The notes beneath the pieces were generated by a model. The model was not told the DNA's origin, did not search any database, and saw nothing but the letters and a program-made list of their open reading frames with translations. The translations under genes were made by a program, and so were the position numbers. This document shows, one piece after another, positions 15,115 through 17,966 of a stretch of 37,422 bases of DNA. Location of the stretch: positions 1 to 37,422 of the forward strand of contig CAYXVH010000258.1 in assembly GCA_964468615.1 (NCBI GenBank). The letters run 5' to 3'. This stretch comes from an uncultured Thiotrichales bacterium (GTDB lineage Bacteria > Pseudomonadota > Gammaproteobacteria > UBA4575). Each line of letters opens with the position of its first letter. Positions within the stretch are counted from its first letter, which is position 1.

Positions 15115-15147
15115 AACGCTCCACGATTTCGTGGGGCGTTTTTTTTT
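15115..15147 (+). terminator. Rho-independent terminator of pilA
   Basis: AACGCTCCACG (15115-15125) pairs with CGTGGGGCGTT (15130-15140), giving an 11-bp stem with one G.U, a 4-nt loop and a run of 9 T (15139-15147). Confidence 0.85.
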
Positions 15148-15153
15148 GCATAG

Positions 15154-17106
15154 ATGACTATTTCTAATCGACTATTCTTTTTTATTGTTGCTATTTTTTG
15201 TAGCCTTACTGTTGGGCTTTACTATCCTGGCCTCAACGGTAATTTTCATTTTGATGACTACCCAAATATCGTAAATAATTTCAGATTACATTTAGACTCA
15301 CTGCATCCTACAGCGATATGGGAAGCCACATGGAGCGGCATTACTGGTAATTTAAAGCGGCCTATTTCAGTTTTATCCTTCTCTTTAAACACATATTTTA
15401 CTGGCCTTGATGCAGGCCCTATGAAAATTACCAATCTTCTAATACATCTATTATGCGGCATTGGAATCACACTTCTATCAAAACTATTAATACAAAACTG
15501 GTTCAATAATAAAGAAACATCAAAAGTAAATTTAATTAGCTTAGTCATTGGAGCTATTTGGCTAACACATCCAATTCAGTTGACAAGTGTTCTGTATATA
15601 ACACAAAGAATGACTAGCCTTGCTAGCTTGTTTTCAATATGCGCAATAATTTCTTATTGCATAGCGCGAAAAAAGTTTTTATCAGAGAATAGTAAGTGGT
15701 ATTACTTCATTCCTGTAGTCGTACTCGGAATATTATCAATACTAAGCAAAGAAATTGGAGTGCTTATTCCACTATTTTTACTATGCATAGAAATATTTGT
15801 ATATAAATTTAAATGTTACTCGAAAAAAGATACAAAAATATTGTGCGTACTATACTTACTAGTAATTGCAGTCCCTGCATTAATGCTGGCAAGTAATTTA
15901 ATTACTCAACCCGAAAGAATACTCAAATACAGTTTACGAGAATTTACACTTTGGGAAAGACTGCTAACAGAAACTAGAGTGGTTACGGAATATCTAAAAA
16001 CTATAATTTCTCCAAATATATCTGAGCTTGGTTTACTCAAAGATAACACTGAAATATCTAAGTCCTTGTTTCAACCTTCTAGTACACTTTTTTCTACCGT
16101 ATTACTATTAATCTTAATCATTCTTTCTGCACTCTCATATAAGAAATACCCTTATATTGGTTTTGGTATCATGTGGTTCTTAATTGGCCATTCATTAGAA
16201 TCTACAATCTTCCCACTAGAACTTAAATTTGAACATAGAAATTATCTACCTTCTTTTGGAATAATATTTACAATTGTAGTTGCTCTGAATACATTTTTTA
16301 GCAAAAACAACAAATTAAAATACGCCTATATATTATTTTCGCTTTGGCTAATAGCGCTTTCGACTGTAACATTTATGCGCGCTACTCAATGGAAAAACGA
16401 ATATACACTCGCATTATATGACGTGGAACGTAACCCTAACTCTCCTCGAGCAAATATAATAATGGGGTCAATCTATCAATCGGTTTATGGCTATACAAAA
16501 GAATCAAAACTCAAAGATGAACTTTATAAAGAAGGAATTATTTACTTTCAAAATGCTGAGATATTGCGACCCAACTCCATCACTCCTTTACTTGCAAAAT
16601 CAATATTCGCCTGTGAACACTTAAATCAAATACCCAAACAAGATCTTCAGCAAATTAAGTTAAAAATAAAATCCAGCACACTTGACTCAGAACCACAAAA
16701 TGCAATTACCCTTCTTAGTAAAAACGTAATTGATGGAAAATGTAATATCCCCAGAATGGATTTTTTACAAATTATGTATGCTGCGCTACTAAACCCTAGC
16801 CTTAAAGGAAAGCATAGAGCACAAGTACTGGCAAATTTATCTGGTTACTATGGAGCAGTAGTTAGAGACATCGACACAGCAGTTGACCTTTTACAGGAAG
16901 CTGTGACCGAAACTTCAGCCAACATGGTATATAAAATTGAATTATCAAAACTCATGTTGATTAATGGCGAATACGAAGACTCGCTAAGTTTAATAAATAA
17001 TTTGAAAAAGATTGACAAATACGGAACATATAGCAAAACTATTAATGAAGCCCTTGAATTTATCGAAACCTATAAAGATTCATTTTCCAGCGAGATTTCA
17101 AATTGA
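15154..17106 (+). CDS. GT-C fold membrane glycosyltransferase with C-terminal TPR-like domain (TMTC/PMT-like; TfpW-like by position)
   Basis: 650-aa ORF. An N-terminal TM helix is followed by the loop motifs FHFDDYPNIVNN and RPISVLSFSLN, then about 10 further hydrophobic segments. The soluble C-terminal part of about 250 aa is helical-repeat/TPR-like. It lies immediately downstream of pilA. Confidence 0.7.
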   Translation: MTISNRLFFFIVAIFCSLTVGLYYPGLNGNFHFDDYPNIVNNFRLHLDSLHPTAIWEATWSGITGNLKRPISVLSFSLNTYFTGLDAGPMKITNLLIHLLCGIGITLLSKLLIQNWFNNKETSKVNLISLVIGAIWLTHPIQLTSVLYITQRMTSLASLFSICAIISYCIARKKFLSENSKWYYFIPVVVLGILSILSKEIGVLIPLFLLCIEIFVYKFKCYSKKDTKILCVLYLLVIAVPALMLASNLITQPERILKYSLREFTLWERLLTETRVVTEYLKTIISPNISELGLLKDNTEISKSLFQPSSTLFSTVLLLILIILSALSYKKYPYIGFGIMWFLIGHSLESTIFPLELKFEHRNYLPSFGIIFTIVVALNTFFSKNNKLKYAYILFSLWLIALSTVTFMRATQWKNEYTLALYDVERNPNSPRANIIMGSIYQSVYGYTKESKLKDELYKEGIIYFQNAEILRPNSITPLLAKSIFACEHLNQIPKQDLQQIKLKIKSSTLDSEPQNAITLLSKNVIDGKCNIPRMDFLQIMYAALLNPSLKGKHRAQVLANLSGYYGAVVRDIDTAVDLLQEAVTETSANMVYKIELSKLMLINGEYEDSLSLINNLKKIDKYGTYSKTINEALEFIETYKDSFSSEISN

Positions 17107-17966
17107 GTAATTCGATTAGCATCATAATCCCATCGAAAAATGAGGCTAGCGGATTGACAAATCTACTACCCAAACTAAATCAGTTATACCCCGAAGCAGA
17201 TATTATTTTAATCGATGACGGATCGACAGACGAAACATTAAGCCTGGCTGATAAATTTAACGTAACGATTGTTTCTCATCCATACAATATTGGTAATGGA
17301 GCGGCCGTCAAAACCGGGGCACGAACTGCGAATAGCGATATTCTCATATATATGGATGCGGACGGACAACATAACCCCGAGGATATTAATAGGTTATTAG
17401 AGTCAATTGAAAGCGGTGCTGACATGGCTGTGGGCGCCCGGTCATCCAATTCCCAAGCGGGAAAGCGGCGCTGGATGGGAAATAAATTATATAACACTAT
17501 CGCCAGTTTAATCGTTGGACACAAAATTGATGATTTGACTTCTGGATTTAGAGCGGTGCGAGCAACAAAATTCAGAGAATTCCTACATATCCTTCCAAAT
17601 GGTTTCTCATACCCCACAACAATAACCATGGCATTTTTTCGAGCCGGATACTCTATCAAATATATACCCATTGTAGCCAATAAACGCTTAGGGAAAAGTC
17701 ATTTAAGACTTGGTCGAGATGGATTACGCTTCTTAATAATTATATTCAAAGTTGGCACACTCTATTCACCTTTAAAAATATTTTTCCCAATAAGCTTCTT
17801 TCTATTTTTATTAGGAGCTGGATACTACCTTTATACCTTTATCATGCACGGCCGCTTCACAAATATGAGTGCACTACTATTTATTTCCTCCTTGTTAATC
17901 ATATTAATTGGCCTAATTTCAGAACAAATAACTACTTTAATATTTAAAGATACACATCTTAAGTAA
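17103..17966 (+). CDS. Family 2 glycosyltransferase, polyprenyl-phosphate sugar synthase type (GtrB/ArnC/DPM1-like)
   Basis: 287-aa ORF whose TTG start overlaps the upstream TGA (TTGA). Motifs are IIIPSKNE, DDGSTDET and DADGQH. Two C-terminal TM helices end in GLISEQI, typical of GtrB-type enzymes. Confidence 0.8.
   Translation: MSNSISIIIPSKNEASGLTNLLPKLNQLYPEADIILIDDGSTDETLSLADKFNVTIVSHPYNIGNGAAVKTGARTANSDILIYMDADGQHNPEDINRLLESIESGADMAVGARSSNSQAGKRRWMGNKLYNTIASLIVGHKIDDLTSGFRAVRATKFREFLHILPNGFSYPTTITMAFFRAGYSIKYIPIVANKRLGKSHLRLGRDGLRFLIIIFKVGTLYSPLKIFFPISFFLFLLGAGYYLYTFIMHGRFTNMSALLFISSLLIILIGLISEQITTLIFKDTHLK

Follow-up and report, generated by a model that had tools for sequence, protein, structure and literature searches.

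A TfpW-like GT-C/TPR glycosyltransferase gene behind pilA, paired with a GtrB/DPM1-like family 2 glycosyltransferase gene, as a probable pilin glycosylation cassette

Glycosylation of type IV pilins alters the surface chemistry of the pilus, and in Pseudomonas aeruginosa it protects against pilus-specific phages. To our knowledge, TfpW is the only enzyme studied among pilin-directed proteins that join a GT-C membrane domain to tetratricopeptide repeats (TPR), and it has been studied only with D-arabinofuranose. Contig CAYXVH010000258.1 of an uncultured Thiotrichales bacterium (Gammaproteobacteria, UBA4575; assembly GCA_964468615.1), analyzed over its whole length of 37,422 nucleotides (nt) and called the window below, raises the question of what such an architecture does outside that case. 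Directly behind its pilin gene pilA and the pilA terminator lies a gene for a membrane protein of 650 amino acids (aa), which overlaps a gene for a family 2 glycosyltransferase (GT2). A reading made earlier from the sequence alone (the sequence-only reading) had proposed a donor synthase and a periplasmic transferase aimed at the pilin, an interpretation that our analysis supports. We consider the two genes to be probably a TfpW-type pilin glycosylation cassette, TfpW-like and new in its GT2-based donor supply, on the grounds of its fold, predicted topology, motifs, conserved synteny and conserved terminator. The coordinates of all features are collected in Table 1.

Sequence searches with the 650-aa protein as query returned zero matches for its membrane part in Pfam, NCBIfam and the PDB sequences. 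When 70 homologues were compared with Pfam at E values up to 1, they matched TPR families alone, TPR_19 being detected in 60 of them, with no TMTC_DUF1736, PMT or PMT_2. A profile of the family likewise found only TPR proteins among the PDB sequences, over residues about 443-640 (consensus TPR E = 7e-28). AlphaFold modeled the full length with a mean local confidence (pLDDT) of 91.1 and a predicted template modeling score (pTM) of 0.90, and residues 1-422 with values of 90.7 and 0.91. Foldseek matches of the full-length model are dominated by TPR structures, including OGT and Tom70, with PilF among the weaker ones. For residues 1-422, the top 16 PDB matches are all GT-C enzymes, with query-normalized TM-scores of 0.45-0.54: AglB (0.52-0.54), Pmt4 (0.54, or 0.47 when normalized to the target), STT3 (about 0.5) and ArnT (0.46), followed at lower rank by DPY19 (0.47) and PglB (0.45). 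WaaL reaches only 0.25 at a probability of 0.28, and transporters stay below 0.2. The modeled structure supports a GT-C fold for the membrane domain, and neither that of an O-antigen ligase nor that of a transporter. Structural comparison was the test that the sequence-only reading had set for its GT-C claim, and the claim came through it; the profile and the TPR_19 matches likewise confirm the soluble, TPR-like C-terminal third that it had described.

The same comparison bears on the possibility that the 650-aa protein belongs to the Wzy_C type, as an O-antigen ligase or as an oligosaccharyltransferase similar to TfpO (PilO) or PglL, or else is a transporter. It would share with TfpO the nature of a multi-pass membrane protein encoded next to pilA, and TfpO too glycosylates pilin in the periplasm. 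However, TfpO and PglL have a WaaL-like fold instead of GT-C and use undecaprenyl-diphosphate-linked O-antigen units, the membrane part of the window protein has no Wzy_C or other Pfam hit, and the PilA of the window lacks the C-terminal Ser that TfpO modifies. With the fold comparison already contradicting it, we regard this identity as practically excluded. The cyanobacterial pilin-modifying Ogt, which was also considered, is a GT41 enzyme and unrelated.

Hydropathy, the positive-inside rule and the AlphaFold helices together predict an N-in protein with 11 transmembrane (TM) helices, five periplasmic loops and a periplasmic TPR domain. Lys and Arg account for 13 of 48 residues in the cytoplasmic segments and for 16 of 164 in the periplasmic loops. 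Residues 31-42, FHFDDYPNIVNN, contain the acidic pair D34-D35, about 10 residues past TM1, which forms a DDX motif with Y36; this pair, taken in the sequence-only reading as the acidic motif of the first extracytoplasmic loop, is invariant in the 70 homologues. The second motif quoted earlier, RPISVLSFSLN, starts at residue 69. The alignment of these homologues has 30 invariant residues in total, including D34, D35, R69, P70, K199, E200, Y280 and H361-R362-N363-Y364, and 22 of the 30 fall in predicted periplasmic loops.

Such a pattern has to be set against a quite different role, that of a non-catalytic pilus assembly factor, a TPR scaffold or chaperone which retains a GT-C-like membrane fold. 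Other pilin accessory genes found at the same position (TfpY, TfpX, TfpZ) do not encode enzymes, and TPR proteins such as PilF, itself among the weaker fold matches, act in pilus biogenesis. Yet the DD pair and 28 further residues, with the share in periplasmic loops given above, are invariant among proteins that are only 30-35% identical overall, and a donor-synthase GT2 is tightly linked, so that we hold a non-catalytic role to be very improbable.

The family is large and is scarcely named. At 90% clustering the full-length homologues, about 650 aa each, number more than 1,489, and residues 1-420 retrieved 4,783 cluster representatives at E values up to 1e-30 and 24,709 at up to 1e-3. RefSeq calls the relatives 'hypothetical protein' or 'tetratricopeptide repeat protein', while some sources label members of the family 'protein O-mannosyl-transferase'. 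A family model for the membrane domain (residues 1-420), which has no Pfam or NCBIfam match, appears to be missing.

The closest described counterpart is TfpW of P. aeruginosa group IV, a 646-aa protein encoded directly after pilA, with 11 TM helices, a periplasmic TPR domain and an ArnT-like model (bioRxiv 10.1101/2020.04.19.049825). TfpW carries an essential DDX motif in periplasmic loop 1, whose mutants lose pilin glycosylation, and a proline-rich motif in loop 4; homologues beside pilA were reported from Acinetobacter, Teredinibacter, Azotobacter, P. indica and Kingella (bioRxiv 10.1101/2020.04.19.049825). At 650 aa, the window protein is nearly the same length, and the two agree in N-in orientation, 11 TM helices and five periplasmic loops (by prediction in our case). 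Both have DDX in periplasmic loop 1, a C-terminal periplasmic TPR domain and an ArnT-like GT-C fold. Their genes agree as well, since TfpW of strains Pa5196 and PA7 is encoded at the same place, directly downstream of pilA and behind a terminator. They differ in the donor: TfpW uses polyprenyl-phosphate D-arabinofuranose made via DprE1, DprE2 and a synthase dependent on phosphoribosyl pyrophosphate, whereas a GtrB/DPM1-type GT2 is found here and in most relatives. Family scans of the large open reading frames (ORFs) of the window revealed no DprE1, DprE2 or polyprenyl-phosphate ribose synthase. The window is also without a homologue of TfpX, unlike the TfpW system.

The gene order around the GT-C gene was compared in the best 80 of at least 597 loci encoding relatives, obtained by a scan with one genome per species. 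These loci represent many beta- and gammaproteobacterial lineages, with Acinetobacter, Exilibacterium, Novimethylophilus, Undibacterium, Solimonas, Dokdonella and Rhodanobacter among those in culture; carrier strains are Acinetobacter tianfuensis WCHAc060012, Exilibacterium tricleocarpae R142, Novimethylophilus kurashikiensis La2-4, Solimonas soli DSM 21787 and Dokdonella soli JCM 15421. A pilin gene, sought within 700 nt on the same strand, lies directly upstream of the GT-C gene in 57 of 67 assessable loci. GT2 position was assessed in 69 loci: a GT2 of the subfamily with the N-terminus S-I-I-x-P-A-K-N-E is directly downstream in 44 and within 6.5 kb in 58. The link of the pair to the pilin, drawn earlier from one contig, thus recurs as strongly conserved pilA/GT-C/GT2 synteny. 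One locus, L002 in our numbering, keeps the synteny of the window at 62% identity.

Two or three tandem GT-C/TPR paralogues are present in 30 of the 80 loci (among them L005, L016, L019, L030, L051, L061, L067 and L071), and some loci (L079, L052, L037) repeat the whole pilin/GT-C unit. These arrangements suggest several sugars or sites, or cognate pairs of pilin and enzyme. Three loci of Rhodanobacteraceae and Dokdonella (L049, L057, L078) have a DegT/ArnB-type aminotransferase gene directly after the GT-C gene, and their GT2 is about 5.7 kb off on the opposite strand; this neighbor hints at an amino-sugar donor in those lineages.

Where the GT2 is not adjacent, the neighbors are GT4s, other GT2s, methyltransferases, Wzx-type proteins and sugar-nucleotide enzymes. 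General polysaccharide genes of this kind (GT4, Wzx, methyltransferases) would suit another target: the pair could modify a glycan such as O-antigen, lipid A or another envelope polymer, in the manner of GtrABC or ArnC/ArnT, with the pilA site merely collecting glycan islands. The logic of a GT2 plus a GT-C enzyme is best known from the modification of lipopolysaccharide (LPS), and the reduced GC content of the island behind pilA is as expected of a mobile glycan locus. Nevertheless, many orders show the pilin adjacency, the terminator architecture is common to them and room for a separate promoter is lacking, and the cassettes are duplicated along with pilin genes. Fusion of TPR to GT-C is typical of protein-directed enzymes (TfpW, TMTC), and tblastn searches of plasmids gave no homologue of the 650-aa protein. 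We therefore consider a glycan target quite improbable.

The junction between pilA and the GT-C gene is itself informative. The PilA of the window has a prepilin leader and a C-terminal disulfide loop. Within the 72 nt that separate its gene from the GT-C gene lies an intrinsic terminator, whose 5' and 3' arms (15112-15125 and 15130-15143) enclose a loop at 15126-15129. A terminator scan counts 14 pairs in its stem, seven of them G-C; the core is a G+C-rich stem of 9 bp, or 11 bp when two A-U pairs are counted, and the 22-nt core has -15.3 kcal/mol. The GT-C gene starts at the ATG at 15154, immediately preceded by an in-frame TAG (15151-15153). Only GCATAG stands between the T-run and this ATG, which leaves neither a Shine-Dalgarno (SD) sequence nor space for a promoter. 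A promoter scan found no plus-strand site within 14300-15250. Further upstream, the pilR-pilA spacer contains TGGCATGATATCTGTA at 14482-14497, which resembles a sigma-54 -24/-12 element with three mismatches; as the pattern is no commoner in the window than in shuffled sequence, the site is no more than a lead.

Terminators at this place are conserved. With a hairpin plus T-run counted at -13 kcal/mol or below, 45 of 66 loci have one in the stretch from pilA to the GT-C gene, compared with 2% (9 of 414) of random 150-nt windows drawn from these loci, so the arrangement exceeds chance. A Rho-independent terminator after the pilin gene is a common feature that attenuates the expression of accessory genes, whose co-expression with pilA has been shown (TfpY study, PMC11841053), and cassettes attenuated in this way are an established arrangement in P. 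aeruginosa and further species (PMC11841053). In 18 of 44 terminator-bearing loci, no more than 15 nt separate the T-tract from the first in-frame start codon. Many lineages place the GT-C start codon only 0-6 nt past the T-tract, as in TTTATG: the window (15139-15156), L002, L021, L024, L035, L045, L066, L072, L078, L080 and L081. Judged from sequence, the U-tract of the terminator in such lineages would double as an SD-less initiation region and couple attenuation to weak translation.

At its other end, the GT-C ORF stops with TGA (17104-17106), overlapping the TTG start of the GT2 gene at 17103. Ahead of the conserved GT2 N-terminus ISIIIPSKNE, this TTG is the sole canonical start, and L002 has an identical TTGA junction. 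Besides the window, 6 of 47 relatives show an NTGA stop/start overlap between the two genes, and in 35 of the 47 the spacing lies between a 4-nt overlap and a 60-nt gap. What the sequence-only reading had located (pilA, the strong terminator, the ATG 7 nt later, the TGA-TTG overlap and the quoted motifs) is correct in every coordinate. Its translational coupling of the two genes fared unevenly: the overlap is there in the window, but only a minority of relatives share it and most have short gaps instead.

The GT2 gene encodes the presumed donor synthase. Its product has a GT-A catalytic domain of the GT2 family and carries DDGSTD (residues 38-43) and DADGQH (residues 85-90, with D85-A86-D87 as the DxD motif), and two C-terminal hydrophobic TM helices at residues 210-228 and 250-268. 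The closest solved relatives are dolichyl-phosphate mannose synthase (DPMS, 1.6e-16), ArnC (1.9e-12) and GtrB (3e-10 over residues 4-276), in line with the earlier description of a GtrB-like polyprenyl-phosphate GT2. Its best NCBIfam match is AglJ, over the full length at 9e-36; at 123.7 bits this falls below the cut-off of 325, so the sugar cannot be assigned. None of the curated cut-offs is reached among the named equivalogs AglJ, PpgS and ArnC. Being of the DPMS/ArnC/GtrB type, this adjoining GT2 suggests, indirectly, that the GT-C enzyme may use a polyprenyl-phosphate-linked donor.

The same division of labor is known from GtrA/GtrB/GtrC, ArnC/ArnEF/ArnT, CsbB/GtcA/YfhO and the actinobacterial Ppm1/Pmt, where a polyprenyl-phosphate monosaccharide, the product of a GT2 with C-terminal TM helices, is the substrate of a GT-C enzyme outside the cytoplasm. 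Unlike in the Gtr, Arn and CsbB systems, the acceptor here is most likely a protein, the pilin, as it is only in Ppm1/Pmt. The window also differs from all of them in that its GT-C enzyme bears a TPR domain, a flippase of the GtrA or ArnEF type is lacking, and the genes would form part of the pilA transcription unit. The eukaryotic TMTC1-4 have the same order of parts, TPR repeats behind a GT-C domain whose loop 1 carries an acidic pair, and a protein acceptor. In contrast to them, the family described here is bacterial, periplasmic and linked to pilins, and none of the 70 members searched matched the TMTC and PMT domains listed above.

Several observations weigh against a TfpW-type cassette. 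The TfpW motif YX6PFX7P occurs in 0 of 367 proteins of the family; only its part Y280-x6-P287, in predicted periplasmic loop 4, is kept, Y280 being invariant and P287 present in at least 90% of members. The likeness to TfpW (AAM52060.1) is one of architecture, judged against the published description. Homology searches seeded with the proteins of L080, a Pseudomonas metagenome-assembled genome, and L029 (Exilibacterium), together with cluster look-ups on 30 proteins, yielded none of the accessions of the TfpW preprint (P. aeruginosa, A. venetianus, Teredinibacter, Azotobacter, Kingella). The GT2-linked group is known from genes alone, and 11 of the 69 loci have no GT2 within 6.5 kb. Pilins adjacent to a GT-C gene are not enriched in Ser and Thr (19.5%, against 19.3% in non-adjacent pilins). 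There is no small GtrA-like ORF in 15000-30600, as the sequence-only reading had said; this absence holds for the GtrA type only, given that the island contains a Wzx-like candidate flippase with at least 10 TM segments. Lastly, the pseudaminic acid (Pse) genes of the island are ill-suited to a model in which one sugar is transferred, because pseudaminic acid activated with cytidine monophosphate (CMP) is a cytoplasmic donor. With a likeness of architecture, YX6PFX7P incomplete and a different donor pathway, the window protein is set short of a proven member of the TfpW family.

For a TfpW-type cassette, we infer a pilin acceptor, an undecaprenyl-phosphate monosaccharide donor and expression by terminator read-through, and any identity given to the sugar has the same standing. 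The GT2, an inner-membrane protein whose catalytic domain would face the cytoplasm, would transfer one sugar from a nucleotide sugar to undecaprenyl phosphate. The lipid-linked sugar would then be flipped to the periplasm, for which the Wzx-like protein is the sole candidate in the window. There the GT-C enzyme, through D34-D35 in periplasmic loop 1 and its other conserved loops, may pass the sugar to a Ser or Thr of PilA, while the periplasmic TPR domain would hold the acceptor pilin. PilA would thus be modified at the periplasmic face of the inner membrane, before assembly of the fibre. The GT-C, GT2 and DUF354 genes, having no promoter space of their own, would owe their transcription solely to read-through from the pilA promoter past the pilA terminator, under control of PilS/PilR. 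Given the SD-less start 7 nt after the T-tract, enzyme output would be a small fraction of that of the pilin.

Between pilA and pilBCD lies an island of about 15 kb, with the pair as its first genes, which the sequence-only reading overlooked; its GC content is 31-36%, compared with 39-42% in the flanks. The low GC of the segment from 15000 to 30000 suggests, from composition, a variable or horizontally exchanged region; no tRNA gene flanks it. The flanks carry housekeeping genes and the pilus genes pilS, pilR, pilB, pilC and pilD. The first island gene after the GT2, separated by 9 nt, encodes a DUF354 protein, a domain for which a glycosyltransferase-like fold was predicted while its function is obscure (PMC4520260). 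A DUF354 gene adjoins or follows the GT2 gene in L002, L081 and L052, and is linked to GT2 in the clade of the window and in L052. NCBIfam scores exceed the cut-offs for PseB (533 bits), PseC (572), PseG (325) and PseI (477), and PseF, with 187 bits, is under its cut-off of 206. Downstream, the gene of the putative nonulosonic acid transferase, whose match TIGR04396 is a surface carbohydrate biosynthesis protein, overlaps the Wzx-like gene by 4 nt. A MATE-type flippase handles the undecaprenyl-phosphate monosaccharide of pentofuranose systems (PMC11194591), which makes the Wzx-like protein a reasonable candidate flippase here.

The content of this island offers a different role for the GT-C protein, that of an O-oligosaccharyltransferase moving a preassembled, pseudaminic-acid-capped oligosaccharide en bloc to the pilin. 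The GT2 would start the glycan on undecaprenyl monophosphate; its extension in the cytoplasm would fall to the DUF354 protein, the GT4 and the BFO_1060-like transferase, with CMP-pseudaminic acid made by the island, and the Wzx-like protein would flip it, as a bacterial counterpart of the haloarchaeal route from AglJ to AglB on dolichyl monophosphate. This is consistent with an island lying entirely on one strand between pilA and pilB at a GC content below its flanks, and holding a complete Pse pathway, a putative nonulosonic acid transferase, a GT4 and a Wzx-like protein, in an order that L002 shares. No phosphoglycosyl transferase appears among the family-scan matches of the large ORFs of the window, AglJ is the best full-length NCBIfam match of the GT2, the oligosaccharyltransferases AglB and STT3 are the best structural matches of the GT-C domain, and TfpW itself has been described as an oligosaccharyltransferase. 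However, PseB, PseF, PseG/H and PseI accompany the cassette in only 1-2 of 80 loci, all from the clade of the window. Initiating transferases are often encoded elsewhere, so that their absence from the window is weak evidence, and the AglJ score is far under its cut-off. Within the island, gaps of 228, 249 and 586 nt speak for more than one transcription unit, and a Pse glycan could equally serve flagellin, LPS or capsule. Taken together, we find en-bloc transfer unlikely, though it is the main alternative. The narrower claim that the cassette is the front end of such an undecaprenyl-phosphate-built pseudaminic acid route, with an AglJ-like start by the GT2, no phosphoglycosyl transferase, flipping by the Wzx-like protein and transfer by the GT-C enzyme to a pilin Ser or Thr, is to us rather unlikely.

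Table 1. Features of the window around the GT-C/GT2 gene pair.
Feature	Position	Strand	Description	Evidence
pilS and pilR	pilS 11347-12969; pilR 12972-14333	+	two-component regulator pair upstream of pilA	Pfam 6TM_PilS, HisKA, HATPase_c; Response_reg, Sigma54_activat, HTH_8
pilA	14635-15081	+	type IVa major pilin, 148 aa, presumed acceptor	Pfam Pilin 7e-19, N_methyl 7e-11
Intrinsic terminator	15112-15147	+		hairpin 15112-15143, T9 run 15139-15147
TfpW-like GT-C/TPR membrane glycosyltransferase gene	15154-17106	+	650 aa	AlphaFold model, homologues and pilin synteny
GT-C membrane domain	15154-16383	+	residues 1-410; 11 predicted TM helices, 5 periplasmic loops	
D34-D35 codons	15253-15258	+	presumed catalytic acidic pair, predicted periplasmic loop 1	
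C-terminal periplasmic TPR domain	16384-17103	+	residues about 411-650	
GT2 polyprenyl-phosphate glycosyltransferase candidate	17103-17966	+	287 aa, TTG start	Pfam Glycos_transf_2 1e-31
DUF354 protein	17976-19004	+	342 aa, 9 nt past GT2; glycosyltransferase-like	Pfam DUF354 4.7e-17
Pseudaminic acid pathway	19233-25800	+	PseB, PseC, second NeuB-family protein, PseF-like, PseG-GNAT(PseH-like) fusion, PseI	
Second NeuB-family protein	21404-22465	+		under both NeuB and PseI cut-offs; no SAF-domain match
PseG-GNAT(PseH-like) fusion	23163-24713	+		
PseI	24733-25800	+	clear PseI	477 bits
Soluble 462-aa protein	25895-27283	+	putative nonulosonic acid transferase	NCBIfam TIGR04396 3e-27, BFO_1060 family glycosyltransferase 2e-23, both below cut-off
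Wzx/MOP-like membrane protein	27280-28560	+	426 aa, candidate flippase; at least 10 hydrophobic segments	Pfam Polysacc_synt 3.3e-4 (weak, below cut-off)
GT4 glycosyltransferase	28810-29922	+	370 aa, after 249-nt gap	Pfam Glycos_transf_1 1e-34
pilB, pilC, pilD	30509-34380	+	close the pilus locus	Pfam T2SSE 1e-153, T2SSF 3e-68, Peptidase_A24 with A24_N_bact

The connection of the cassette to the pseudaminic acid island is a lead and not a result. If the oligosaccharide front-end reading were true, the window would hold a bacterial, O-linked equivalent of the dolichyl-phosphate route that runs through AglJ and AglB in archaea, and the type IV pili would be decorated with pseudaminic acid. For the TfpW-type cassette that we favor, the significance lies in the family as a whole. 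A TfpW-like GT-C/TPR gene is found in at least 597 species-level beta- and gammaproteobacterial genomes, placed behind pilA and usually paired with a GtrB/DPM1-like GT2, in a family that is widespread yet unannotated. Defining this family would permit broad annotation of pilin glycosylation and would offer new protein O-glycosyltransferases for glycoengineering.

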